A stretch of 64,000 nucleotides of DNA from contig OZ243956.1 in the NCBI GenBank assembly GCA_965214405.1, positions 32,001 to 96,000 on the forward strand, written 5' to 3'. The translations under genes and the position numbers were made by a program. The DNA is from Trueperaceae bacterium. GTDB lineage: Bacteria > Deinococcota > Deinococci > Deinococcales > Trueperaceae. The notes under the pieces were generated by a model. It was given only the letters and a program-made list of their open reading frames with translations, was not told where the DNA came from and ran no database searches. Shown here piece after piece: positions 5,702-62,555 of this stretch (within the stretch, counting starts at the first letter, position 1; each line of letters opens with the position of its first letter).

Positions 5702-6826
5702 TCACGGCGCCACCCAGCCCTGCGCCTTGAGGTCCCCCAGCAACGCCCCGTACCTGCGCGCGTCTAACGGCAGGTCGACGTCGCTGCGGGTGTGCGACGA
5801 GAGGATCATCGCGTTGGCGAGTTCTAAAGACAGCCGCCCCTGCGCGCCGTCGGCGACTAAGGGTGCGCCGGTCGATATCGCCTCGTGCAGGTTTTTATAA
5901 ATTGCCGCGTGGTTGCCCTCACCGGGCTCCAGGACCACGGCTTCCGCGCGGCTGGAGGGAGCGGCGAAACGCTCGGGGCTCGTAGCGGCAAAGTTCTCGA
6001 AATCCGTCTCGAGCAGGTTCAAGCTCAACGCTCCGTCTCTTATATGCAAGGTGCCGCGCGTGCCGACGAGTTCCAAGCGCTCCGGCCTACCGGCCTCGGC
6101 GGTGCTGATGTGTAAGGAGCCTAAAGTGCCGCTCGACCACTCGAGCATCGCCTGGGCGGTGTCTTCGACTTCCAAATCGTGGAGCAAGTTGCGCGTCCAG
6201 GCGGTGACCCGCGCGGGCCGCCCCAACAGGTAGCACAGCAGGTCGAGATTATGCGGGGCCTGGTTCATGAGCACGCCGCCCCCCTCGCCGCGCCAGGTCG
6301 CGCGCCAGCCCGCCGAGCGGTAGTAGGCCGCCGTGCGCGGCCAGGCGACCGCCATGTCCACATGTTGGAGCGTACCCAGCGCGCCCTCCTCAACGAGCTT
6401 GCGCGCCGCGCGCACCGCGGGCCGACAGCGGTGCTGGAAGTTGACCGCCAACAGACGTTCCGAGCGCCTGGCCGCCGCGATCATCGCGTCGGCCTCGGCC
6501 ACCTCGACCGCCATCGGCTTCTCCACCAGGACGTGACAGCCCGCCTCTAAACAGTGGATGGCGACGGCGGCGTGAAAGGGATGGGGCGTGAGCACGACCG
6601 CGACCTCGGGCCGCGTCTCGGCGAGCATCTCCTGATAATCGCCGTAAAACGGACAGTCCAACTCAACAGCGCGCTGTCGGCCCTTCGTTTCGTCTAAGTC
6701 GGAAACGCCCACAAGTTCGGTCGTGGCGAGACCAAAGGCGGGGCGGTGCATCTCGAGCACGCCCGCCCCGACGCCGATAACGGCGTGGCGTAGCGGCCTG
6801 GGTTGAGACTGGGTCATATCGCTCAT
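5702..6826 (-). CDS. Gfo/Idh/MocA family oxidoreductase
   Basis: VIGVGAG, TPHPFH, HVLVEKPMA, GGGVLMNQAPHNLD; start placed at ATG 6826. Confidence 0.92.
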   Translation of the reverse strand: MSDMTQSQPRPLRHAVIGVGAGVLEMHRPAFGLATTELVGVSDLDETKGRQRAVELDCPFYGDYQEMLAETRPEVAVVLTPHPFHAAVAIHCLEAGCHVLVEKPMAVEVAEADAMIAAARRSERLLAVNFQHRCRPAVRAARKLVEEGALGTLQHVDMAVAWPRTAAYYRSAGWRATWRGEGGGVLMNQAPHNLDLLCYLLGRPARVTAWTRNLLHDLEVEDTAQAMLEWSSGTLGSLHISTAEAGRPERLELVGTRGTLHIRDGALSLNLLETDFENFAATSPERFAAPSSRAEAVVLEPGEGNHAAIYKNLHEAISTGAPLVADGAQGRLSLELANAMILSSHTRSDVDLPLDARRYGALLGDLKAQGWVAP

Positions 6827-6972
6827 AGGTTCGTCCACTTCTTTCGGTTGGGGCTCGGATAGACGCGAAGCGTGCGGCGACGCTGTTTGAGCGTGGCTCC
6901 TTGATTTGTTAATGTTGAATCTAACATGCACCCTTTACAGAATCAACGCGGTTCAGCGTAAGGAGCGCCCTC

Positions 6973-7422
6973 ATGAAGTCATACCTTTACCCGACCCCCG
7001 CCGGGTCTACTTTGGCGCGGGCAACGCGGCGCGTGCGCTCCATCTGCGCCATCACGAACGCGGGCAAGGCACAGATTTATATTGGCTTATGGGCGGACCG
7101 CGTCGCGCGCATTCTTGCGCCCGAGACGGCCCCGGCAAAGCTCGATGTTTCCTTTGAGAGGTTGCAGGAGACGGCCTTTTCGGTTGTGGGGCTCGTTTTT
7201 GCGGTTGCCGGGCTCGCCGACTTGGGGCGAAGTGTGGCCCTTAGCCTTTCGAGCTTAGGCGGCGCGTGGGCGGAACCCGTGGGGGCGGCGCTCAGGGTCG
7301 CGCTCGGGCTCTGGCTGCTCTTGGGTGGGGGTAAATTGGCGACGTTTTTGAGAGGGCTCGAGGCGAGCCACATCGGGCGCGACGATGATGAGGAACCTGG
7401 TGAAGGCCGTTCGGCGAGGTAG
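6973..7422 (+). CDS. Hypothetical membrane protein, possibly an N-terminally degraded fragment
   Basis: Two hydrophobic helices in C-terminal half; N-terminus looks non-coding-like. Confidence 0.45.
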   Translation: MKSYLYPTPAGSTLARATRRVRSICAITNAGKAQIYIGLWADRVARILAPETAPAKLDVSFERLQETAFSVVGLVFAVAGLADLGRSVALSLSSLGGAWAEPVGAALRVALGLWLLLGGGKLATFLRGLEASHIGRDDDEEPGEGRSAR

Positions 7423-7718
7423 ACGAGATGAACCAAAAACGCGCCTGATAGTCTACCAAATCCCTCTTTTTCTGCTAAAATCGTGGGGTCGGTCAAGTCT
7501 TATCCGTCCTCTCGGTTTGTTGCTCGCAACGCGGTTTCGTTGAGGTCTAGGTTTCCTCGTGCAGGGCACCATTCACCCCTCGAGCGTCGCCAGCCGCTGG
7601 CAGTTTGGCTTGAGGGGGTCGTAAAAGCTTTCTTAGCGCGTTTTGAAGCGCTCACAGGAGGTGGTGGGGTGTCTCAGTTAGCTACCGGTTTGGGTCTTGG
7701 TTGTACGGGGGAAAACCC

Positions 7719-8939
7719 ATGCTAGCCGCTTTTCGCCAGTTCAAGACGTATCCGCTCCAGTCGGTGCTCATCATCTTGGCGGTCGCGCTCGGGGTGGCGG
7801 TGGTGACGGCGGTGGCGGCGCTGCTCGGCCAGACCTTTTCGCAACTCAACGACGCCGCGCTGTGGTCGCGGCAGCTCACCCTGCAAACCAAGGCGAACGA
7901 CCAGGGAGCCTTTTACAGGGGCGACGCCGTACCCGTGCGCGAAGTCGGGCTCTTGAACGAGGAGAAGGTGAGTTTGGCGCTGGCCGATTTGGCGCGCGCC
8001 AAGGAGGCCGCGCCGACGGTGGACTACGCTTACGTGACGAGCTGGTACGGTTTTACGGTCAATCCAGAGGGTGATGCGTTCGACTTAGACGTTAGGGCCG
8101 TGACGGCGGACTACCTGGCGGCGGCGGACGTTAAGGTCATCCAAGGGAGCTTGCCCAGCGAGAGCGACTTTGCTGAAAACCGCAGGGTTATGTTGCTCTC
8201 AGAAGAGACCGTTAAAAAGCTTGGGGTGGAGGGTAATCCCATAGGCCAAAGTATCAAAGTCTCCGACTTTAGCAGCGCCAGCGACTATACCCTTGTGGGC
8301 GTGCTCGAGGGCAACGAGCAGGGCAACGACGGGCCGAACACGTTTATTCCCTACAAACCCGCGCCCTGGGAAGCGGACGGGCTGCAAGAACTCAGCTTCG
8401 CGGTTCAGGACAGGGCCGATGTGGCGCAGGCTCGCGCCGAGTTGCAGACCTACGCCGAGAAGACCTGGGGCGGGCGCGTTACGGTTAGTTCGCTGAGTGA
8501 CGGAAACGCCGAGGGGCAGTACCGGCTGGTGGCGCTCGTGACCGCGGCGTTTGCCTCGACGGCCTTGGCGGCGGCGGCCTTGAACATCATGAACCTGATG
8601 CTGGCGCGGGTGCTCGAAAGGCGGCACAGCATCGGCATTTTACGCAGCTTAGGCGCGAGCAAGGCAAGCATCCTTTGGGGCTTCTTGAGCGAGAGTCTGG
8701 TCTTGGGCGTGATGGGCGGGCTGCTCGGCGTCGGGGCGGGCTACGGGCTTTTTGTGCTGTACAACCGTTACCAGGTTACCGTCTACGGCGACCAGTTCGC
8801 GGCTCTCCTGGGCGCGTTTCCGTGGTTCGCGCTGCTCATCGGCTTCGCCGTCGCCCTGGCGACGAGTCTCATTTTCGGTTTCTACCCCGCCTGGCAGGCG
8901 TCGCGGCTGCGCCCGGTTGAGGCGCTGCGGGAGGTGTGA
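7719..8939 (+). CDS. MacB/FtsX-family ABC transporter permease (A1)
   Basis: ILAVALGVAVV, NIMNLMLARVLERRHSIGILRSLGA, FGFYPAWQASRLRPVEALR. Confidence 0.9.
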   Translation: MLAAFRQFKTYPLQSVLIILAVALGVAVVTAVAALLGQTFSQLNDAALWSRQLTLQTKANDQGAFYRGDAVPVREVGLLNEEKVSLALADLARAKEAAPTVDYAYVTSWYGFTVNPEGDAFDLDVRAVTADYLAAADVKVIQGSLPSESDFAENRRVMLLSEETVKKLGVEGNPIGQSIKVSDFSSASDYTLVGVLEGNEQGNDGPNTFIPYKPAPWEADGLQELSFAVQDRADVAQARAELQTYAEKTWGGRVTVSSLSDGNAEGQYRLVALVTAAFASTALAAAALNIMNLMLARVLERRHSIGILRSLGASKASILWGFLSESLVLGVMGGLLGVGAGYGLFVLYNRYQVTVYGDQFAALLGAFPWFALLIGFAVALATSLIFGFYPAWQASRLRPVEALREV

Positions 8940-8940
8940 G

Positions 8941-10173
8941 ATGAGAAGCGTTTGGCGGCGCTTTCGCAGGAAACCCTTGAGGGCGGTTCTCACGCTCTTG
9001 CAGATTGTGCTCGGCTCGCTGGCGATGACGCTGGCTTTGTCGGTTTACTTGGACGCCTACGCGCGGCAGAACGCGGCCCAGGCGGAGCGTTTTGATTTGA
9101 TTGCGGGAAACGTGGACGAGGACGGCTCGAGCTACACCTATTCGTTTATGAGCGCGGCGGGGGCGGCTGAGCTTACAACGCTCGCGCCGGACGTCGAAAA
9201 GGTCGCGCTCTACGCGCAGGAATGGGCGCCTGTGGTCGAGTTGGGCGGCAGGCTCTACCAGTTTCAGTGGGGAGCGTTCGTTGACAACGCGTTTTTCGAC
9301 CTCAACGATGTTGCGCTGACTCGAGGCTCGCTCTTCACCCAAAGCGAGGCCGACGCCAAAGAAGCCGTGCTGCTCCTTTCCGACGAGGCCGCCGCCATCC
9401 TTTTTCCCGACCTAGACCCGCTAGGTCAGACGCTAACCCTCATGCCCGACGAGAATTTGGGGGACCCCGACGCGTCTCCCCAGCCCTTCAGGGTCATCGG
9501 CACCTTTGCGGTCAAAAGGGACGCCTCCGGTGAGAAGGACCACATTTATCTCCCCACCTGGACCCAAAGCAACGTGGTAGGCGGGAGCAGCACGCTCAAC
9601 GTGCTCGCCAAGGCGGGCCGGGGCGACGCGGCGCGGGCGCAGGTTGTAAGCGCCGCGCGTCGGGTTTTCGCGCAGCGTTTAGAAGACTGGGACGTTGAGG
9701 AGGGCAAAGACTTCTACATCCGCGAAATGGGCGAGTCGCCCTTCGGCCCCCGTCCCGACCTGCTCGACCCCACGGTGGTCATGTTCGGACTTTTCGGCAT
9801 CGTCGCGCTGATTGTGGGCTCGATTGGGATTTTCTCCATCATGGTGGTGGACGCCCTCGAGCGCGAGCGCGACATCGGCGTCAAGCGCGCGTTGGGCGCC
9901 ACAAGGGGAAGCGTGGTGCGCGAACTCACCTTAGAGGCCACCCTCTTGTCTGGTCTGGGCGGGCTGCTGGGCGTTTTCTCCGCCGCGCTCCTCTTCCCGC
10001 TCTTAGCGCGCGGGGTGGGCGAGAACGTCTTTTGGGGCATTGACTTGCGCTGGCAGCCGCTGGCGGCGGGGCTGGTGGTCGGGGTGACGCTCCTTTTGGG
10101 AACGGCATTGGGTATTTTTCCGGCGTGGCGGGCGGGTAGGACGAACCCGGCGCAGGTGTTGAAGGGAACATGA
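8941..10173 (+). CDS. MacB/FtsX-family ABC transporter permease (B1)
   Basis: ATG at 8941; GIFSIMVVDALERERDIGVKRALGA, GIFPAWRA. Confidence 0.9.
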   Translation: MRSVWRRFRRKPLRAVLTLLQIVLGSLAMTLALSVYLDAYARQNAAQAERFDLIAGNVDEDGSSYTYSFMSAAGAAELTTLAPDVEKVALYAQEWAPVVELGGRLYQFQWGAFVDNAFFDLNDVALTRGSLFTQSEADAKEAVLLLSDEAAAILFPDLDPLGQTLTLMPDENLGDPDASPQPFRVIGTFAVKRDASGEKDHIYLPTWTQSNVVGGSSTLNVLAKAGRGDAARAQVVSAARRVFAQRLEDWDVEEGKDFYIREMGESPFGPRPDLLDPTVVMFGLFGIVALIVGSIGIFSIMVVDALERERDIGVKRALGATRGSVVRELTLEATLLSGLGGLLGVFSAALLFPLLARGVGENVFWGIDLRWQPLAAGLVVGVTLLLGTALGIFPAWRAGRTNPAQVLKGT

Positions 10174-10268
10174 ACCGGGTGACTGGTGTTTTGTGGGCGG
10201 GCTTGAGCTTTGTTCCCGCTTTGGGGGCAAGCCGGGCGCGCATTTCTCAAAGTTTGGGAGGTTCGTAG

Positions 10269-11465
10269 ATGCAGGTGTTCCGTCGGTTCTTCTCGAGCCC
10301 ACTCCAGTCGAGTCTCACCCTGCTCGCGCTTGCCCTGGGGGTCGCCGCTGTCACAGCCATCGCGGCATTTATTAGCGTGAGCAGGCTCTCGCAAACGGCG
10401 CTCACGACCTCGCTATGGGCTCGAGAGCTGACGATGCAGACCAGGGAAGACGACCTTTATAAGGCTACTGAAGATGACAGAATGCTTATTCACGAAGTGG
10501 GGCGGTTGGGGGATGAACCGATAACGCTCACCGAAGCTGACATGGAAAGGGCTCGAGAGGGTGCGCCCCTGGTGGATTATGCCTATGTGACCTCACCTGT
10601 GGGCATAGACATGAGTAACATTACTAAAGACGGTACGGATGTTCTTGCCGTGAGCAAGGATTATTTCGCGGTCAACACCATAACGGTGTCGGAGGGCTCG
10701 AGCTTTACCGACAGCGACTACACGCAGCAGCGCGACGTTGCCTTGGTTTCGCCCAGGCTCGTCAAGCTCATGGGCGTGTCCGACCCGATAGGGAAACACG
10801 TTAAAGATGAGTGGGGAGGTTTCGACTTCGAGATTATCGGCGTCTTGAGCGCTCAGGACGCCACGAGTCTTCCTGACATGCTTGTTCCCTTCCGCCCCGA
10901 CCCCTACAACGCGATGAACCCCCCCACTTTCGTGGTTGAGGCCGTTGCTGACGTTGGCGAAGCGCGCGCGCAGTTGCAGGCGTTTGCCGCTAGAACCTGG
11001 GGCGACCGCGTGACCGTGCGCTCGCAAAACCTGAAAAAGTACGCCGCACAACAGCGCTCCACTCGAGTGCTGATTGCCTCGCTCGCGTCTACCGGGTTGG
11101 TAAGTGCGGCCCTGAACATCATGAACCTGCTGCTGGCTCGAGTCTTCAAAAACAGGCGGGACACCGGCATCTTGAGAACCTTAGGCGCAACCCGGAGGAT
11201 GATCAGAAACCGGTACCTCATAGACGCCCTGGTGCTGGGCGTGATAGGTGGCGCTATCGGGGTGGGGTTGGGCTACGGGCTGCTCATCATCTTTGACACC
11301 TACGTGGCCGCTGCCGACCCGCAGGCGATTTCAGTTGCTTCACCCTCACCCATACCGCTGCTTGTCGGTTTCGTTTCAGCCCTCGGGATAAGCGTCGTTT
11401 TCTCCCTCTACCCCGCGCTGTTGGCCTCCCGTCTGAACGTCATCGAATCCCTAAAGGAGTTGTGA
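10269..11465 (+). CDS. MacB/FtsX-family ABC transporter permease (A2, paralog of A1)
   Basis: Shares LW.R.LT.QT, VDYAYVTS, TWG.RVTV, AALNIMNL.LARV with 7719..8939. Confidence 0.9.
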   Translation: MQVFRRFFSSPLQSSLTLLALALGVAAVTAIAAFISVSRLSQTALTTSLWARELTMQTREDDLYKATEDDRMLIHEVGRLGDEPITLTEADMERAREGAPLVDYAYVTSPVGIDMSNITKDGTDVLAVSKDYFAVNTITVSEGSSFTDSDYTQQRDVALVSPRLVKLMGVSDPIGKHVKDEWGGFDFEIIGVLSAQDATSLPDMLVPFRPDPYNAMNPPTFVVEAVADVGEARAQLQAFAARTWGDRVTVRSQNLKKYAAQQRSTRVLIASLASTGLVSAALNIMNLLLARVFKNRRDTGILRTLGATRRMIRNRYLIDALVLGVIGGAIGVGLGYGLLIIFDTYVAAADPQAISVASPSPIPLLVGFVSALGISVVFSLYPALLASRLNVIESLKEL

Positions 11466-54985: not shown

Positions 54986-55582
54986 TTAGTTGAGCTGCGT
55001 CTCGAGCGTGCGCGGTCCCGCCCTCTGTTTATCGACTGGGGGTCGCGCTTCGTCGGGGGTAATGATGGGAGCGAGAAGTGCGTGGACGGTCCTGAGCGCG
55101 TAGCTTTGCCTCTCGGGCAGCCATAAGAGGGGCAGGTCGGCCCCGCGAAAGGCGGCCTCGAGGCGCGCGCGCCGCTTTTCACTCGCTTGTTTATGTATCC
55201 CGGACGGGTGTTCGGACTCCAAATTGATGGCGCAAAGCACGGACAAGTCGCTCGCCCGGCAGACGACGTAGTCCACCTGACCCTGTAGAAGCCGCCGCGC
55301 ACGCCTCCCAAAGAGGCCGGGTCCGAGCTCTAAAACCTCGGCCACGCGCACCTTGCCGAAAATACGGTAGTTGCTCCCCAGGGCTTTGTCGAGCGCACCC
55401 AAAAGAGCACGTTCGGTGGGCGAAAAAAAGATCGTCCTCTGGACGCGTAGTCCCTTTGGCACCTTGGACGCTCTTGACAAGAGCGCCACAATACCGACGA
55501 CCAGAAGCAGGGCCACGACGAGCGCGGTGAGGAGCGCGGCGGGCAGAAAAAAGGAGGATTCGGCAAAGCGTGTAACGTCCAC
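54986..55582 (-). CDS. DUF2726 domain protein
   Basis: N-terminal TM; SPTERA, IFGKVRVAEVL, VDYVVC. Confidence 0.8.
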   Translation of the reverse strand: MDVTRFAESSFFLPAALLTALVVALLLVVGIVALLSRASKVPKGLRVQRTIFFSPTERALLGALDKALGSNYRIFGKVRVAEVLELGPGLFGRRARRLLQGQVDYVVCRASDLSVLCAINLESEHPSGIHKQASEKRRARLEAAFRGADLPLLWLPERQSYALRTVHALLAPIITPDEARPPVDKQRAGPRTLETQLN

Positions 55583-55866
55583 GGGAGTCCTTTCACGAAG
55601 AGAACGGAGCTGGCGTTAAGATGAAAGTTCTCTTAGAAAGAGTGTGCAACAGTCTCACGGTTTTGTCTGTGAGGAGTTAGCTGAGGCCTCCGTTCACGGC
55701 TTCACAAGCATGACTCACGCCTTGACCGTGCTAAGGTAGACGCCTACAAAAACTTGGAAGCTCCGTTACGGCTGGTTAACATGCTCGAGACCCCCTCACT
55801 ACCCTCTAATGCTCACACCACACCTGAGCAGAGCCTTCTTTGTGGCTCGTTTAAGTTGGCGGCCGC

Positions 55867-58800
55867 GTGAGCCGTACTCTTGGCAAGGCGCAACGGCTCA
55901 CCGAACTGCTCGAGCTTCTCAAGCTCAAAGCCTGGACGAGCCGCGAACTCGCGGAACGCTTCGGGGTGCCCATCCGCACGGTTCAGCGCGACCTAGACAC
56001 GTTACGCGAGAGCGGGCATGGGGTCGCAACCTCAGAGGATTTCCGCCACCGCCTCACGCCGACGGGTTCGTCGCTTAACGCCGTCGAAGGACTCGCAGTT
56101 CACGCGGCGGTAAGGCTCTTGTACCACCACTCACCTACCCAGAACCGGTATTACCGCTCGGCTTTGGAGAAGCTGGCGGCGCTGCTGCCCGAACCTGCCA
56201 GGGGAATCGCGGCGGCGAGTGCGCAAGACCTGAAAGTGCGCCCCGGTGACGACCGGACTTTGGAGTTGGTCGCGCGGGCCTGGTTCGAGGGCAAAGTTCT
56301 GCGGTTCAAGTACCTCGCCCCGGATAGTTTTGAACCTGCCTGGCGCGAGTTGGAAACATATCTGCTCGAGGTCAGCCGCACTAACTTGGCCCTTTACGCC
56401 ATCGGTCAGGAGCGCACGTTCAACCAGGTGCTCACCTTCAAATTGTCCCGTATGAGCGATGTTCGTGTTTCGGACGATGCCTACGCCATCCCTGAAAGCT
56501 TTGCGCCGAGCGAATACTTGAGCGCTGCTTGGGGCGTGATGGGTGGGCAAGGGGACAAGGTGGCTAAAGTGCGCTTGCGCTTTGAGCCCGAAGCCGCCTC
56601 CCGCATCAAAGAGGGCGGCTATCCCAATTTGAGGGTAGAGAGGGAACTAGCGGACGGCTCGCTCGAGGTCGAAATCAAAGCAGGCACCGACAACACGGGC
56701 TTTCCAAAAGAACTCCTCCCCTGGGTACAGAGCTGGGGGCCACGGGTCGATGTTCTTGCGCCCAAGGCGCTGCGCGAACGCTGGCTGAGCGAGGCCGGTG
56801 CCGTCGCGTTGAGGCACCCTCACTTAAAAACGAGGCTCGCGTCACTAGATGACGCACCCAAAGGACAGACTGAACCTATGACGAATCTTTCAGCGAAGGC
56901 GGCGGCCCTGTGGGCCAAGAGTGGTGAAGACGAGCAGGGCTATAGCCTCGTGGGACACTTGTTGGACGTGGCGGCGGTGGCGCACGCCCTGCTCGAGCGC
57001 GAACCCCCGCAGACCCTGCGGCTTTACGCGGAGGATGTGGGGCTCGAGCCCGGCGACGCTAAGAAATGGATAGCGGCACTGGCGGGCTTACACGACATCG
57101 GCAAGGCGACCCCGGCCTTTCAGCGGCAGTGGGAACCGGGACGGCTGGTGGTCGAGGCAGCGGGGCTTACGTTTAGCAAGGGCGACAAGGGCACCGCACA
57201 CGGAAAACTCTCGCAGAAAATCTTGCAAGACGAGCTCAAAATCTACGGTTTAGGTAAGAGGCTCGCCGCTCAAGTTGCCGACGCCGTAGGCGCACATCAC
57301 GGTCTGCGAACCGCGAAGGGCGACTTGTCAGACAACGTCGTTCCGCAACAAGACATGGGCAACAATGCGTGGCAAGAAACCCGGCAAGAGCTGCTAACCG
57401 AGTTTCTAAAGGCCGTAGAAGTCGTTCAAATCTCACCCCCGATCACCGCCGCACTCACGGGCCAGGGCTTTATCCGATTAGCAGGCTTGACCAGCTTTGC
57501 CGATTGGATTGGCTCGACAGTTGACTTTTTTCCTACCGACCGCAAAGTAGAGAATTTGAGAGAGCACTTTCTCGACTCGTTGCTAAGGGCGCGCAAGGCC
57601 CTGAACGCGATAGGCTGGGAGCGCCGCGAGCCTTTAGCGGCGGAACCTCGAGCCTTCAACACCATCTTTCCTTTTGAGCCCAACGGTCTTCAAAAGCAAA
57701 TCGTCAACCTTGTCGAGCAAACGCGTGAACCCTCTCTTCTCATCGTCGAAGCGCCGATGGGGGAAGGAAAAACGGAGGCTGCCTTCTACGCCCACGTCAC
57801 TTTGCAACGGCAGTTGGGGCACCGAGGCTTGTACGTGGCGCTGCCCACGCAGGCAACGGGTAACGCCATGTTTGAGCGCACCAAAAACCTTCTCAGCACC
57901 TTCGAGCGCGACACGCCACCCGACTTGCAGCTTTTACACGGCTCGAGCCTGCTCAACGACGCTTACGCCACCATCCAAATCAAGGATGTAGATGGAGTGG
58001 ACAACACAGAGAGCGAGGTGTGGGCCAGAACCTGGTTCACCAGCAAAAAGCGGGCGCTGCTTTCGGAAAACGGGGTGGGCACGGTTGACCAGGCGCTCCT
58101 CAGCGTTCTAAACATCAAACATCAATTTGTGCGCCTGTGGGGATTGGGTAACCGCACGGTTGTTTTGGATGAAGTCCACGCGTATGAGCTTTACACGAGC
58201 AAGCTCATTGAGCGCCTAGTCTGCTGGCTGCACGCGCTCGGCTCGTCGGTCATCATCATGAGCGCGACGCTGCCCACCGCCAAACGACTAGATTTAGTCA
58301 AAGCCTTTGGCGGCGGCGCGGCCGAGGAGCCCGTCTCTTACCCACGCATCACGCAGGTGCTGGGCGGAGAGACCAAGGAGGTTTCGTTCTCGGTGAGAGA
58401 GCAGAAGCCTATGAGCTTGAAAAGGGTCAGCCTAGATCTCGAGACGGTAGCAAACCTTCTCACAGGCTTGATGACGGACGGCGGTTGCTCGGTGGCTATT
58501 CTAAACACGGTGCAGCGGGCGCAAACTCTTTACAGCCTGTTTGGGGAGGGTGAAGGTCTTGAGGCCGGAAAGCGTTTACCCGACGGCACCGAGGTCTATC
58601 TGTTCCACGCCCGTTATCCGGCGGAGGAGCGGAAAAAGCGGGAGGAGGCGGTGCTGGGGAAGTTCGGCAAGGGCGGAGAGCGCCCAGCCAAGGCCATTCT
58701 CATCGCCACGCAGGTGGTTGAGCAGAGTTTAGACCTTGATTTTGACGTGATGGTGAGCGACTTAGCGCCCGTCGATTTGCTCTTGCAGCGTGCCGGACGG

Positions 58801-59556
58801 ATGCACCGCCACGAGCGCGAACGTCCCGCCGCCCACGCGTCGCCCGTCCTTTACGTGGCAGGGCTGACCGACGCCGAGACGCTACCGGATGTCAGCAGCG
58901 AATACTTCGATTGGGTTTACGAAGCGTTCACGCTTTACATGACGTGGTGGACCTTGGCTGATAAGGAAGTTATTGCGTTACCTGAAGACTTTGAGCCGCT
59001 TATCAAAGCCGTATACGGCGAAACCGATTTTACGGCGCTGCCGGATTTCGCCCGTGAGGTGGTTGAGCAAAGCCGCGCGGACCAGGAAGGAGAAGCCGAC
59101 ACCCACAAGCGAAAAGCTGTCAGCTCAGCTAACGTGATACCTCTGCCAAACATCTACCCGACCACCGACGGCGTCAGTTCGGTTGTCAAGAGCGAGGACG
59201 ACGAAGACCCCAGCCTTCACGAGCACTACCGGCCCGCGACGCGTCTGGGCGATCCCAGCGTCACGGTCATCCCCTTACATAAAAAGGATGACAAGCTTTA
59301 CCTCGAGCCCTCCTACGAAACCGAAATCGTGTTGAACAAGGAACCCTCATGGCAAGCGGCGAGAACCCTCTATCTGCAACACCTCAAGCTGAGCCGTAAA
59401 GGTCTTGTGTTCGAGCTTGTTAAATATCCAGTACCCGCTTGGCAGAAGCAACCGCTGCTGCGTTACTGCTTCCCGCTCACTTTTGAGGAGAGGGTGGCAG
59501 TGGTTGGGAAATTGACCCTTCGCTATGACGATGCGCTAGGGATTGTGTATGGGTAG
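55867..59556 (+). CDS. cas3: HTH-WYL-WCX regulator fused to type I-E Cas3 (HD nuclease + SF2 helicase)
   Basis: N-terminal ELAERFGV..RTVQRDL HTH and TFKLSRM WYL motif; from aa 338 LWAKS..HLLDV, HDIGK, HHG, ADW, APMGEGKT, DEVH, SAT, QRAGR. Confidence 0.93.
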   Translation: MSRTLGKAQRLTELLELLKLKAWTSRELAERFGVPIRTVQRDLDTLRESGHGVATSEDFRHRLTPTGSSLNAVEGLAVHAAVRLLYHHSPTQNRYYRSALEKLAALLPEPARGIAAASAQDLKVRPGDDRTLELVARAWFEGKVLRFKYLAPDSFEPAWRELETYLLEVSRTNLALYAIGQERTFNQVLTFKLSRMSDVRVSDDAYAIPESFAPSEYLSAAWGVMGGQGDKVAKVRLRFEPEAASRIKEGGYPNLRVERELADGSLEVEIKAGTDNTGFPKELLPWVQSWGPRVDVLAPKALRERWLSEAGAVALRHPHLKTRLASLDDAPKGQTEPMTNLSAKAAALWAKSGEDEQGYSLVGHLLDVAAVAHALLEREPPQTLRLYAEDVGLEPGDAKKWIAALAGLHDIGKATPAFQRQWEPGRLVVEAAGLTFSKGDKGTAHGKLSQKILQDELKIYGLGKRLAAQVADAVGAHHGLRTAKGDLSDNVVPQQDMGNNAWQETRQELLTEFLKAVEVVQISPPITAALTGQGFIRLAGLTSFADWIGSTVDFFPTDRKVENLREHFLDSLLRARKALNAIGWERREPLAAEPRAFNTIFPFEPNGLQKQIVNLVEQTREPSLLIVEAPMGEGKTEAAFYAHVTLQRQLGHRGLYVALPTQATGNAMFERTKNLLSTFERDTPPDLQLLHGSSLLNDAYATIQIKDVDGVDNTESEVWARTWFTSKKRALLSENGVGTVDQALLSVLNIKHQFVRLWGLGNRTVVLDEVHAYELYTSKLIERLVCWLHALGSSVIIMSATLPTAKRLDLVKAFGGGAAEEPVSYPRITQVLGGETKEVSFSVREQKPMSLKRVSLDLETVANLLTGLMTDGGCSVAILNTVQRAQTLYSLFGEGEGLEAGKRLPDGTEVYLFHARYPAEERKKREEAVLGKFGKGGERPAKAILIATQVVEQSLDLDFDVMVSDLAPVDLLLQRAGRMHRHERERPAAHASPVLYVAGLTDAETLPDVSSEYFDWVYEAFTLYMTWWTLADKEVIALPEDFEPLIKAVYGETDFTALPDFAREVVEQSRADQEGEADTHKRKAVSSANVIPLPNIYPTTDGVSSVVKSEDDEDPSLHEHYRPATRLGDPSVTVIPLHKKDDKLYLEPSYETEIVLNKEPSWQAARTLYLQHLKLSRKGLVFELVKYPVPAWQKQPLLRYCFPLTFEERVAVVGKLTLRYDDALGIVYG

Positions 59557-59596
59557 CTTTACCCAGAAGCCTTGTTATGGTTGCTGTGCAAGCGCG

Positions 59597-59635
59597 GAAG
59601 TTAGCCTTGACTAACCTCCCTATTTCGACTACTAT
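59597..59635 (+). promoter_or_regulatory. TA operon promoter with overlapping inverted-repeat operator
   Basis: TTGACT 59607-59612, N17, TACTAT 59630-59635; IR GGAAGTTAG-N6-CTAACCTCC over the -35. Confidence 0.6.
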
Positions 59636-59650
59636 GCTATCGAGGACGTA

Positions 59651-60010
59651 GTGAGCTCTACGCCGTACATCGTTTACGAGTACGAGGACGAAAATGGTTA
59701 CTCCGAGTTTCGGGAGTGGCGCAAGGCGCTTAGACGCTCCAATCCTAGAGCTTCTGCGAAAGTCGATTGGCTCATCGCGCTGCTCGAGGACAAAGGTACA
59801 ACACTGTCGTTTCCCTACGTCAGTCATATAGACGGGCCGATTTATGAACTGCGCGGTAAAACCGGACGTAACACCGTACGCATTTATTACTGGCAACAGG
59901 ACAAAGAGGTATTCATCGCCGCCGCGGGCGAGGTGAAGCAGCAGAACCAAGCTGACCGCAAGCTTATTAGGAAAGCTTTGGCAGCTTACGAGGAATATAA
60001 CAAGGAGTAA
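59651..60010 (+). CDS. RelE/ParE (HigB/Gp49-like) toxin
   Basis: L...G..L.FPY..HI.G.IYELR....VRI.Y pattern; toxin-first gene order. Confidence 0.85.
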   Translation: MSSTPYIVYEYEDENGYSEFREWRKALRRSNPRASAKVDWLIALLEDKGTTLSFPYVSHIDGPIYELRGKTGRNTVRIYYWQQDKEVFIAAAGEVKQQNQADRKLIRKALAAYEEYNKE

Positions 60011-60014
60011 CGCC

Positions 60015-60410
60015 ATGCCAAAACGTCCCTTGAAACGAGCGAGCGACCTAAGCCAAGAGTTTTTGCAAGACCCCGGTTACGCTGCTCTATACCGTGAGGT
60101 CGCTAACGAAGAGATTGGAGCGGCGCTGCGCACAGTGCGCGAGGCTAAGGGGTTAAGCCAGCGTGAGGTTGCCGAGCGCATGGGCGTGACGCGTCCACGT
60201 GTGTCGCAGATTGAAAGTGTCGAGGGTACGGCGTTGGCGCTCGAGGTGCTCAGCCGCTACGCCCGCGCGGTAGGGTGCCGCCTCGACATCACTTTGAAAG
60301 ACGCCGAGACCAACCATGAGGTTGCTGCGCTGTTTGTACCAACGCTCGAGGCTACCGCGCCAAAACCGCCCGGCGCGGAGCCTTATGAAAAAGCAGAGGG
60401 GGTAGCCTGA
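60015..60410 (+). CDS. XRE-family HTH antitoxin (HigA-like)
   Basis: LRTVREAKGLSQREVAERMGVTRPRVSQIE. Confidence 0.88.
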   Translation: MPKRPLKRASDLSQEFLQDPGYAALYREVANEEIGAALRTVREAKGLSQREVAERMGVTRPRVSQIESVEGTALALEVLSRYARAVGCRLDITLKDAETNHEVAALFVPTLEATAPKPPGAEPYEKAEGVA

Positions 60411-60465
60411 AAGATAGTTCCGCACCACGTAGGCACAACGGTTATGGGTAGAATGAGTTTGAAAC

Positions 60466-60555
60466 ATTTTCCCTACACGCGTGGGGATGAACCTTAGTAA
60501 TTCCACCTGTGGACGTAATAGTGAATATCCTCCCCACACCAGTGGGGCTGCGGTT
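60466..60555 (+). CRISPR. Single-spacer mini-array of type I-E-like repeats (crRNA-like regulatory RNA)
   Basis: Repeat ATTTTCCCTACACGCGTGGGGATGAACCT (60466-60494), 32-nt spacer (60495-60526), repeat ATCCTCCCCACACCAGTGGGGCTGCGGTT (60527-60555); both hairpins preserved; -10 TAGAAT at 60449-60454. Confidence 0.85.
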
Positions 60556-60562
60556 GGTGGGT

Positions 60563-60623
60563 AAGTAGTAATTCCACCTGTGGATGTAAAGCCTTGACTC
60601 CGATACTGTCCCGTGTGTATAGT
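60563..60623 (+). promoter_or_regulatory. Promoter overlapped by the mini-array target (AAG PAM + protospacer)
   Basis: AAG 60563-60565, protospacer 60566-60597, TTGACT 60594-60599, N18, TATAGT 60618-60623. Confidence 0.75.
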
Positions 60624-60776
60624 GAAAAAGCGTGGCTGGGGCCTACCGCGAAATAGTCACCCCACCACGCCTCAAGGGACATGCCCTCTGAATCCGATTT
60701 TACCTTAGCTTTGGCACAAATTCAAAGGGCGTCCACTTTAACGTAGGGAGGTTTCCACCTCTCGGACGGGAGTAAC

Positions 60777-60962
60777 GTGTTAGACCTCGAGGACACCACC
60801 TACCAAGCGTTTAGGGACAGCCTGTATCAGGTTGACGAGCGAGACCGCGCCGTGCTGTGGGAGTTCTGGCCCCACTTTCAATCGGCTTTGAACTCTCGAC
60901 ATGGAGAGTGGCAGAAGCTGACGTTAACGGGCTCGCTCGATGACGACGATGTAGACCGTTAA
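60777..60962 (+). CDS. Small acidic orphan protein (61 aa), candidate CRISPR-repressed effector
   Basis: SD GGGAG, GTG start; lies between the targeted promoter and a terminator. Confidence 0.6.
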   Translation: MLDLEDTTYQAFRDSLYQVDERDRAVLWEFWPHFQSALNSRHGEWQKLTLTGSLDDDDVDR

Positions 60963-60967
60963 CCGTG

Positions 60968-61001
60968 GTGAGGCGCATCCCGCGCCTCACTTCTTTATTT
61001 T
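60968..61001 (+). terminator. Intrinsic terminator
   Basis: GTGAGGCGC-ATCCC-GCGCCTCAC followed by TTCTTTATTTT. Confidence 0.85.
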
Positions 61002-61006
61002 GGCGA

Positions 61007-61038
61007 CGTCACTACATGACGCACCCCCCTCTTACACT
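61007..61038 (+). promoter_or_regulatory. Cascade operon promoter with palindromic operator
   Basis: CGTCA-CTACA-TGACG-CACCC (19/20 identical to 56840-56859), -10 TACACT 61033-61038, then SD GAAAGGAGG. Confidence 0.65.
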
Positions 61039-61058
61039 GCTTTTGAAAGGAGGCCGAG

Positions 61059-62555
61059 ATGTTTAACCTCATCCATGAACCTTGGCTGCGGGTCGAAAAC
61101 CCAGACGGCTCGCTAGGCCAGGACTCGCTAAAGGGGGTTTTATTAAACGCCCACCGCTACGCGCGGCTGGCCCACCCCTCCCCCGCCGTGCTCCCGGCGC
61201 TGCACCGCTTTCTACTGGCGGTGCTGTACCGGGTACTGGACGAACCACGCAGTACCGATGAAGGGGTTGATTTGTTCAAACAGGGTCGGTTTCCGGCGGA
61301 GCGCGTCGGTGCTTATCTCGAGCACTGGCAAGACCGCTTCGACCTGTTCCACCCTGAAAGGCCCTTTTACCAGGTGCCGGACTCGGAAGATAAGGTGTCA
61401 GGGGTCGCCCGGCTCGCAGCCGAACTCGCCAGCGGCACGAACAAACTCCTCTTCGACCACACCGCGGAGGCCGACCCGCCGGAGTTGACGCACGCCGAAA
61501 TCGCGCAACTGCTCGTGACCCGGCAGATGACCGCCATCCCCGAAGGCGCGGGCTACAGCCCCAGCCCGGCGGGCGGCGCGGCGTTCGTGCTGCCGCAGGG
61601 TCGCAACCTGTTCGAGACGCTGGTGCTCAACCTCGTTCCTTATTCTGAGGAGGAGAACGAGGACGACGCGCCCATTTGGGAAGGGGCTACGCCGAAGAGC
61701 GCGGCGGTAAAAGCCGCCAAGCCGCGCGGCTCGAGAGGGCTTACCGAACGTTACACCTGGCTAACGCGCATCGTTAAGTTGCAAGAACCCGAGGGTGACG
61801 CGCCTGTGTCGGCGCTGCATTATGCGGCAGGCATCAAGTTCGATGGCGGCGACAGCCCCGACCCCATGTTGGCTTACCGCAAAGATGAAAAGCGCGGGCT
61901 CCTCCCGGTATCTTTCAACAAGTACAAGGCGTTCTGGCGGGACTTTCAGGCCCTAATACCCAATCCCGACAGCGGAAGCTACTTAGCGCCCCAGACGGTA
62001 AAACACGCTCGCAACATATATGAAGAATTAGAGCGCACCGACCCCCTCACCTTACTGGTTTCCGGCCTGAGCAATGACAAGGCCAAGGTCGTGCTGTGGC
62101 GTACCGAACAGTTCAACGTGCCGCAGGTCCTCCTTCAAAATCCGGGGGCTTACGCCGAGTTGACGCGGCTGCTCGAGTACGCCGACAACGGCGGGCGCAC
62201 CCTCTACGGCGCGACGCAGCGCTTGGCGGAAAAGTTGCTGAGCATTGGCGAACGTAAACCCGACCCCGCCGACGTTCGCAACCTGGCCGCGAGTTTTCCC
62301 GCCAGTATGCACTACTGGAGCAGGCTCGAGACCCGCTTTCCCGAACTGCTGGAGCGCTTTGAGACTCAGACCTTTGATGAGCGGTTCAGTTGGTGGTTAG
62401 GGCAAATCACCCTTGTAACGCGCGAAGCCTGGGAGCTTGCCTTAAAGAGCGCCGGGGAAAACGAGCGCGCCTGGCGGGCCGGGGCCGAGGCGAGCAAGGT
62501 CATCAACACCCACCTCAAACGCCTGCGCGAACAGACAGCCGAGCCAGCCCCATAG
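61059..62555 (+). CDS. casA: Type I-E Cascade large subunit Cas8e (Cse1/CasA)
   Basis: FNLIHEPWL, LHRFLLAVL, DRFDLFHPERPFYQ, LFDH, G.NLFETL.LNL. Confidence 0.95.
   Translation: MFNLIHEPWLRVENPDGSLGQDSLKGVLLNAHRYARLAHPSPAVLPALHRFLLAVLYRVLDEPRSTDEGVDLFKQGRFPAERVGAYLEHWQDRFDLFHPERPFYQVPDSEDKVSGVARLAAELASGTNKLLFDHTAEADPPELTHAEIAQLLVTRQMTAIPEGAGYSPSPAGGAAFVLPQGRNLFETLVLNLVPYSEEENEDDAPIWEGATPKSAAVKAAKPRGSRGLTERYTWLTRIVKLQEPEGDAPVSALHYAAGIKFDGGDSPDPMLAYRKDEKRGLLPVSFNKYKAFWRDFQALIPNPDSGSYLAPQTVKHARNIYEELERTDPLTLLVSGLSNDKAKVVLWRTEQFNVPQVLLQNPGAYAELTRLLEYADNGGRTLYGATQRLAEKLLSIGERKPDPADVRNLAASFPASMHYWSRLETRFPELLERFETQTFDERFSWWLGQITLVTREAWELALKSAGENERAWRAGAEASKVINTHLKRLREQTAEPAP

Follow-up and report, generated by a model that had tools for sequence, protein, structure and literature searches.

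A 64,000-nt stretch of DNA from a Trueperaceae bacterium (GCA_965214405.1, contig OZ243956.1 positions 32,001-96,000, forward strand; the whole stretch is called the window here) carries one gene, at 55867 to 59556 on the plus strand, in which a WYL-family transcription factor is joined in frame to a complete Cas3. The genome (G000) is a 4.5-Mb single contig, and this gene is the sole Cas3 matched in it when the fused gene serves as query. We put at roughly 0.5 the probability that the product is a bifunctional protein, in which a DriD-like regulator (residues 1 to ~320) is tied by a linker of about 17 amino acids (aa) to a complete Cas3 of the type I-E CRISPR system, and which is made in a long form besides a short, leaderless Cas3. 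The DNA encoding the linker is best explained as the former cas3 promoter, predicted from its candidate operator, −10 element and start codon to be still in place.

According to the open reading frame (ORF) listing and its translation, one ORF that starts with GTG and is free of internal stops spans the gene and encodes 1229 aa, and the start at 55867 is backed by stand-alone homologues that share the same N-terminal residues. All of its domains lie on the plus strand. The regulator module begins with a winged helix-turn-helix (wHTH) DNA-binding domain at residues 10 to 51 (55894-56019; Pfam HTH_11, 29.5 versus a cut-off of 25), and residues 1 to 60 reach a predicted local distance difference test score (pLDDT) of 84 to 96 in an AlphaFold2 model. 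It continues with a WYL domain at residues 131 to 201 (56257-56469; Pfam WYL, 36.2 versus 21.8), presumed to hold a pocket for single-stranded DNA (ssDNA), and a WCX domain at residues 234 to 313 (56566-56805; Pfam WCX, 46.4 versus 23.9), a domain that is described as the dimerization domain in DriD (PMC13004042). The linker, residues 321 to 337 (56827-56877), appears from comparison of the junction to consist of the 3′ end and stop of a former WYL gene followed by the cas3 promoter, both now translated. Cas3 itself comprises an HD nuclease domain at residues 349 to 555 (56911-57531; Cas3_HD, 159 bits versus 23.1), a superfamily 2 (SF2) helicase core (57691-58818; DEAD at residues 609-806 and Cas3-like_C_2 at 872-984, above the Pfam cut-offs), and a C-terminal domain at residues 1126 to 1226 (59242-59544; Cas3_C, 58 bits, above the cut-off). 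The NCBIfam models cas3_HD (TIGR01596, 92.7 versus 43.45) and cas3_core (TIGR01587, 211 versus 102) were passed as well. The type I-E equivalog PRK09694 aligned with residues 347 to 1091 below its cut-off (383 bits versus 569); since that model rests on enterobacterial Cas3, the subtype was assigned from the locus context instead, where Cse1, Cse2, Cas7e, Cas5e, Cas6e, Cas1e, and Cas2e all score above cut-off and define a type I-E locus. In an alignment of 20 fused proteins, the HD residues H364, H409-D410, K413, H445, H477-H478, and D546, the Walker A residues G632, G634, K635, and T636 (GxGKT, 632-636), and D768 and E769 of the DExH motif were invariant, and Q974, G977, R978, and R981 of motif VI were nearly so. 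An earlier note on this DNA had described one in-frame ORF of 1229 aa made of HTH, WYL, and WCX domains, a short linker, and a Cas3 with complete HD and helicase motifs, along with an in-frame ATG at 56878 (M338); the ORF listing, the domain scores, and the residue conservation bear this description out.

The same note had left room for an assembly indel or a very recent stop loss between the two halves. An assembly or sequencing artefact, or a fresh pseudogenizing event, is very improbable. In its favor stands the nature of the genome, a single-contig assembly of metagenome type. Against it, the region from 55700 to 57500 is reproduced with 0 differences and 0 gaps in Logan contigs that come from two sequencing runs on a single sample, and a single Logan record (56758-57120) spans the junction; the sample is possibly the source sample itself, so that this is an independent assembly by another assembler rather than independent DNA. 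Full-length WYL-Cas3 fusions were also found in related genomes, from other assemblies and sources, at 45 to 86% identity to the window protein (P0001): P0003 (86%), P0004 (locus L003; 85%), and P0005 (56%), and among more distant relatives P0006 (locus L006; 53%), P0007 (51%), and P0009 (45%). The fusion is thus common to a clade down to about 53% identity. Moreover, in a single pairwise comparison of the window with L003, its nearest relative here, the ratio of nonsynonymous to synonymous substitution rates (dN/dS) was 0.127 for the WYL module, 0.12 for the wHTH alone, and 0.133 for Cas3. Both halves are under purifying selection. The 25 codons at the junction had the lowest synonymous divergence (dS) of all, 0.255, compared with 0.44 to 1.84 elsewhere. 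Over the regulator module as a whole, dS was 1.14, about twice the 0.50 of Cas3, which may point to recombination between the halves.

Inside the ORF, at 56839 to 56855, lies a perfect 17-bp palindrome of 6-5-6 geometry, GCGTCA-CTAGA-TGACGC, a candidate operator. Ten nucleotides after it comes the −10-like hexamer CAGACT (56866-56871), and 6 nt after the hexamer the ATG at 56878, whose methionine, M338, aligns with the start of unfused Cas3 proteins; a stand-alone Cas3 of 892 aa (56878-59556, plus strand), probably leaderless, could begin there. A second palindrome, ACGTCA-CTACA-TGACGC, stands 5′ of cse1 at 61006 to 61022; with the flank counted in, it agrees with the junction copy at 19 of 21 bases. 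It too is followed after 10 nt by a −10 hexamer, TACACT (61033-61038, plus strand), and then by an AAGGAGG Shine-Dalgarno (SD) sequence and the cse1 ATG at 61059. A −35-like hexamer is absent at both sites.

We then looked at the corresponding positions in other loci, counting a palindrome with at most 3 mismatches and at least 4 of 6 arm pairs. It precedes cas3 in 15 of 28 distinct I-E-type loci, and in 12 of these 15 an in-frame ATG follows exactly 39 nt after its start. The 12 comprise the fused genes of the window, L003, and L006 and the unfused ones of L004, L005, L007, L017, L022, L029, L034, L089, and L090 (11 of 14 when L089, from the unpublished genome G033, is left out). Before cse1, the palindrome is present in 10 of 23 loci, and TAnnnT follows exactly 10 nt after it in all 10. 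Two Trueperaceae genomes (L004 and L005) keep the unit of palindrome, −10, and ATG with cas3, about 3 kb away from the WYL gene; some 3 to 3.5 kb is inserted between the two genes there (6950-10400). The motif in L090 is read in another frame and its internal TGA is the stop of the WYL gene, which argues for conservation at the DNA level. Between the window and L003 the arms of the palindrome are identical and its 5-nt center differs, although the stretch is coding. With at most 2 mismatches allowed, the 64 kb of the window gave 6 matches versus 5.07 expected, which corresponds to about 0.01 expected per upstream region. Genome-wide, with at most 1 mismatch and the right arm TGACG kept exact, there were 8 sites, and promoter context was found only at the two cas sites; the other 6, the outcome of this search for a wider regulon, lie in GC-rich sequence without promoter features. 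Among 14 loci with type I-C fusions (13 I-C-type Deinococcota and 1 Chloroflexia), neither the junction nor the stretch before cas5c showed such an operator. The start of the fused gene could be located in 12 of these loci, and upstream of it 11 showed none; the exception, L016, has a match with 5 of 6 arm pairs 84 nt before the start.

How the short Cas3 might be translated was addressed with the start regions of 2,652 long ORFs of G000. TAnnnT peaks 6 nt before the first start codon, with 175 occurrences, whereas the neighboring distances of 5 and 7 nt have 88 and 76 and the background is about 25; from this peak, leaderless mRNAs are probably common in this genome. A report on Deinococcus deserti describes 60% of mRNAs as leaderless, with a −10 motif directly 5′ of the start and no conserved −35 (PMC4007540). 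The earlier note had proposed AAAGGA as an internal SD for the ATG at 56878. This hexamer lies in the variable N10 spacer and ends 12 nt before the ATG, compared with a peak at 5 to 7 nt for the SD cores of the genome, and it was ruled out on grounds of spacing and lack of conservation. The product itself, a short stand-alone Cas3 from 56878, stays plausible. Its likelier source is a leaderless promoter conserved inside the gene rather than an internal SD. The retention of operator, −10, and ATG suggests that the 892-aa Cas3 may still be made from within the gene. Thus, the idea of two isoforms gains comparative support, by way of a predicted mechanism other than the SD.

The architecture is not new: this is a fusion of a known kind. 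WYL-Cas3 fusions were already mentioned by Makarova et al. (2014, Front Genet, PMC4012209), in one sentence and without a mechanism, and other papers cite that remark only or mention WYL genes near cas genes. No functional study of such fusions was found in the literature searched. The same literature yielded no account of the retained internal operator, −10, and ATG together with a cse1 operator; supplementary file 6 of PMC4012209, outside that search, may list the same proteins. A scan with the WYL module over one genome per species returned 80 loci. WYL and Cas3 shared one open frame in 16, a separate WYL gene stood directly 5′ of cas3 in 27, cas3 lay at least 2.9 kb downstream of the WYL gene in 4 (with weak matches in L019 and L075), and the flank of the remaining 33 gave no Cas3 match. 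The earlier note had described WYL genes as usually separate and beside cas operons, and the 27 adjacent versus 16 fused loci support this. The fused loci belong mostly to Meiothermus, Calidithermus, and other Deinococcota. Type I-C fusions occur in Thermaceae; the genes downstream of the fusion in L016, for instance, encode Cas5c, Cas8c, and Cas7c, which makes the locus type I-C. Among 121 genomes of the window's family, an uninterrupted full-length fusion was found only in G000 and G032.

A search with residues 131 to 560 against 1.84 billion cluster representatives widened this picture. The junction was spanned in 42 of the 150 best 50%-identity clusters, mostly by proteins of 1,150 to 1,290 aa at 28 to 36% identity, and 3 further matches were type I-C-like fusions with a weak HD match. 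In a Biopython neighbor-joining tree of 76 Cas3 parts, computed without support values, fused proteins occupy at least four places: a type I-C clade, all 8 of whose members are fused; a clade of ~1,200-aa proteins with two shorter, unfused members nested within it; the clade of the window protein (P0001 and P0003 to P0007, plus one unfused member, P0008); and P0009, beside an unfused protein. The tree places and the 42 of 150 clusters together indicate several origins of a fusion that is neither rare nor recent. Homologues of the module that stand alone (44 to 65% identity) end at about residue 318 to 325, shortly before M338. The best explanation for the window gene is that a stop codon was lost between two genes that are adjacent in most relatives, probably long enough ago for the fusion to be shared by its clade.

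What might bind the palindrome was approached through the fold of the module. The AlphaFold2 model of residues 1 to 337 had a mean pLDDT of 77.8 and a predicted template modeling score of 0.41. Its best Foldseek matches were DriD chains over the full length (E 7.6e-15, 334 to 338 columns, 22 to 24% identity), followed by PafBC and then by CapW and BrxR (E 7e-9 to 4e-7); a sequence profile of the module likewise matched DriD among the PDB sequences (E 6.8e-12). In the pocket, Y149, R160, Y177, and K192 align with the ssDNA contacts Y168, R176, Y192, and R207 of DriD, and F191 replaces W206. DriD is reported to be switched on by ssDNA in its WYL pocket (PMC13004042, PMC9186387), and its site, ATACGAC(X)7GTCGTAT, is reported to take the −35 place at a fixed distance from the −10 in promoters that lack a −35 (PMC13004042). 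Our palindrome lies at the corresponding position, has the geometry CG(T/A)C-N7-G(A/T)CG, and would span about −39 to −23 if transcription starts at the ATG. A comparable arrangement is described for PafBC, in which an upstream element of its own replaces −35 recognition beside a normal −10 ("sigma adaptation"; PMC8635444). By analogy, the WYL module may bind the palindrome and act as an ssDNA-dependent activator.

These elements can be assembled into a circuit. An upstream promoter would give the 1229-aa protein, which is the only route to the regulator module. Purifying selection on the module, together with the lack of a stop behind it, means that this long protein must be made; post-translational cleavage is possible. 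The module, probably as a dimer, would bind both operators, and ssDNA in the WYL pocket would then activate the two −35-less promoters, as it does with DriD: the junction promoter would yield a leaderless mRNA for the 892-aa Cas3, and the cse1 promoter the Cascade/cas1-cas2 operon. What the analysis shows is the fusion, its conservation, purifying selection on its two halves, the conserved spacing of operator, −10, and ATG, and the DriD-like fold. The rest of the circuit we infer: the palindrome as the binding site of the module, activation rather than repression, ssDNA as the ligand, production of the two isoforms, and a supply of ssDNA to the sensor by the tethered Cas3. The earlier note had suggested that the tether might link Cas3 activity to cas transcription; the DriD-like fold and the operator would allow this. 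A more speculative extension, which we consider unlikely, is a gene that switches itself. At rest, it would supply a low level of the long sensor-nuclease; ssDNA from its own Cas3, from phage, or from damage would load the WYL pocket in cis, and the wHTH would then bind within its own gene and before cse1, turning on the short leaderless Cas3 and Cascade and perhaps blocking the long read-through. Interference would in this way amplify CRISPR capacity and shift the gene from a sensor to an effector isoform.

The step from fold to operator is where the bifunctional protein meets its first competitor, namely that the palindrome belongs to a different regulator (a CRP-family protein, for example, as reported for the cas operons of Thermus) or forms an RNA hairpin. 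Binding by the module is argued through guilt by association, and another regulator could bind; indeed, in Thermus thermophilus HB8, TTHB186-TTHB187 and TTHB188-194 are reported to rise in a mutant of the CRP-family gene TTHB099 (PMC7662524), with TTHB186 annotated there as a putative transcriptional regulator and TTHB189 as Cse2 family. A promoter element is favored by the fixed N10 distance to TAnnnT, seen in 10 of 10 palindromes before cse1, and the geometry is the one known from DriD. No regulator other than the WYL gene recurs consistently in these loci, which were, however, collected through the WYL gene. The palindrome can fold as a 6-bp hairpin; its stability is no better than that of shuffled sequences (z −1.36 and −1.44), and in several loci the middle of the stem has A-A or C-A mismatches, a defect less damaging to an operator than to a hairpin. 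The hairpin reading is thus unsupported, and we consider the competitor as a whole rather improbable. Further observations weigh against the bifunctional protein. About 4 to 5 of the 9 ssDNA contacts of DriD are kept, the equivalents of R178, R204, Y240, and R288 being absent or changed; CAGACT lacks the first T of TAnnnT and would be a weak internal −10; no such palindrome was found in 13 of the 28 cas3 loci and 13 of the 23 cse1 loci; and it is essentially absent 5′ of the starts of WYL genes, the long gene included. The lack of support values in the tree and the single pair behind the dN/dS estimates should be counted on the same side.

Two other explanations accept the fusion and question what it is for. 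The WYL module could mainly serve the enzyme, by accessory ssDNA binding, by allosteric tuning of the helicase or nuclease, or by Cas3 dimerization, with transcriptional control secondary or lost. There is a precedent in the WYL domain of TePif1, which is reported to stimulate unwinding and restrain ATPase activity (bioRxiv 10.1101/163188). Moreover, most other fused clusters (about 40 distant clusters and the type I-C clade) lack the methionine at the joint and have Cas3 only as a fused protein, so the fusion can also function as an obligate single protein, and an enzymatic role of the WYL module accounts for that at least as well. Two I-E fused relatives are without an intact HTH, P0007, which starts at about residue 176, and P0006 from genome G031, which is fused at the junction and broken near residue 75; regulator function may thus decay in fused forms. 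The first ~75 residues of the latter, with the HTH, lie in a separate frame or ORF (L006, which is L085, ~5950-6225), through either HTH decay or a sequencing error. On the other side, the window gene keeps a whole transcription-factor module with a confidently folded wHTH at a dN/dS of 0.12, and the operator with its −10 persists both within the ORF and 5′ of cse1, whereas TePif1 has a WYL domain alone, at its C terminus. A purely or mainly enzymatic role therefore seems to us doubtful for this gene, and the enzymatic and transcriptional roles do not exclude each other. Alternatively, the fusion could be nearly neutral read-through: a stop was lost, the halves keep their old jobs, the tether adds nothing, and the short Cas3 does the interference. 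In unfused relatives only a few bases separate the stop from the cas3 ATG, and in L017 and L034 it falls inside the N6 spacer, so that one substitution fuses the genes; fused forms occur at several places in the tree; and the uninterrupted full-length form is present in 2 of 121 family genomes. Nevertheless, the fusion persists across the clade down to about 53% identity, and other lineages keep it without an internal start. Such persistence suggests that the fusion is at least not harmful and is probably kept by selection, and we regard neutrality as an improbable account. The bifunctional protein, with its predicted internal promoter, remains our preferred explanation.

The surrounding locus is a complete type I-E system and looks active. 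Downstream of the fused gene follow a toxin/antitoxin pair, a mini-CRISPR, cse1, cse2, cas7, cas5, cas6e, cas1e, cas2e, and an array. cse1 (casA; 61059-62555, plus strand; family match above cut-off) is the first gene of the Cascade-cas1-cas2 operon, the rest of which extends beyond the window, with cse2, cas7, cas5, cas6e, cas1e, and cas2e located in L083. The array, just past the window end (7884 to ~12950 of L083), has 83 repeats at 60- to 61-nt spacing, ending ...GGGGATGAACCG; it lies directly after cas2, a position that suggests an active system. Between cas3 and cse1 are a Gp49/HigB-like toxin gene (59651-60010) and an HTH_3 antitoxin gene (60015-60410); the pair has a promoter-like site of its own at 59607 to 59635 and is also present in L003. 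On the other side of the fused gene, a divergent DUF2726 gene lies at 54986 to 55582 on the minus strand. L003 does not share the region 5′ of the fused gene; there, another ORF directly adjoins the gene. A search of 55500 to 61200 against Rfam gave zero matches at E up to 1.

The mini-CRISPR is degenerate and consists of two repeat-like stretches, at 60466 to 60494 (22/29 identity to the repeat, counted by eye) and at 60527 to 60555 (17/29, likewise), separated by a 32-nt spacer. Nucleotides 1 to 24 of the spacer match 60566 to 60589 at 23 of 24 positions. This target is preceded by an AAG protospacer-adjacent motif and abuts the −35 of a promoter, TTGACT-18-TATAGT (60594-60623). The arrangement recurs in L003, with another spacer and a target there to match it. 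The mini-CRISPR thus looks like a CreR/CreA-type RNA that would guide Cascade to a promoter in its own locus; CRISPR-derived regulatory RNAs have been described for type I-E and other systems (bioRxiv 10.1101/2023.03.10.532045, PMC10120712). The 24-nt direct repeat at 60495 and 60566, which holds a 5-2-5 palindrome, was considered as a WYL operator and ruled out, being the pseudo-spacer and its target. Within 60777 to 61000, 3′ of the promoter, there is a possible ORF of 61 aa without a family match, which might encode a guarded toxin or serve as the cse1 operon's leader; L003 has CTG in place of its GTG start, which makes coding doubtful. A strong terminator-like hairpin (60967-60991) with a T run follows it.

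The regulation of type I CRISPR systems outside Escherichia coli is poorly known. This locus and its relatives offer a testable circuit, with a DriD-like sensor, a 17-bp site at two −35-less promoters, and a natural comparison of fused and unfused forms. Should ssDNA indeed switch the module to activation, Deinococcota would couple their CRISPR expression to DNA damage or ongoing interference, and the fused form would put the sensor on the very enzyme that produces the signal. If the fusion is merely tolerated, this is an ordinary gene fusion.

Other Cas3 fusions are Cas2-Cas3 of type I-F and Cse1-Cas3 of some Streptomyces type I-E systems. They too illustrate that Cas3 accepts large fused partners; unlike here, those partners are adaptation or effector Cas proteins and not a transcription factor. 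With the class noted by Makarova et al. (2014), the window gene shares WYL and Cas3 (HD plus SF2 helicase) in one polypeptide of a type I system, which the I-E and I-C loci found here fit; for the operator, −10, and ATG kept within this joint and for the same operator before cse1, the literature searched gave no counterpart. TePif1 resembles it in having a helicase-attached WYL domain, reported to bind ssDNA and modulate unwinding, but that domain is C-terminal, comes without HTH or WCX, and is attached to a superfamily 1 helicase (bioRxiv 10.1101/163188). CapW and BrxR (PDB 9C5G, 7TB5, 7QFZ, 7T8K; PMC11662680, PMC9122601) are described as wHTH-WYL-WCX regulators of anti-phage systems, with ssDNA sensed by CapW; however, they are repressors and weaker fold matches, and in our case no site was found before the regulator gene itself. 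Actinobacterial PafBC (PDB 6SJ9, 9FND; PMC8635444, PMC11804915), the second-best fold match, is described as a WYL-family activator triggered by ssDNA, whereas it is a heterodimer or fused tandem of two WYL proteins and uses a −26 element rather than a 17-bp palindrome. In fold, DriD of Caulobacter crescentus (PDB 8TP8, 9PFQ) is the best match, with the same order of wHTH, three-helix bundle, WYL, and WCX and a palindromic CGAC-N7-GTCG site at the −35 position of −35-less promoters; DriD differs in being a free protein of 327 aa, at 22 to 24% identity, that controls DNA-damage genes and not cas genes.

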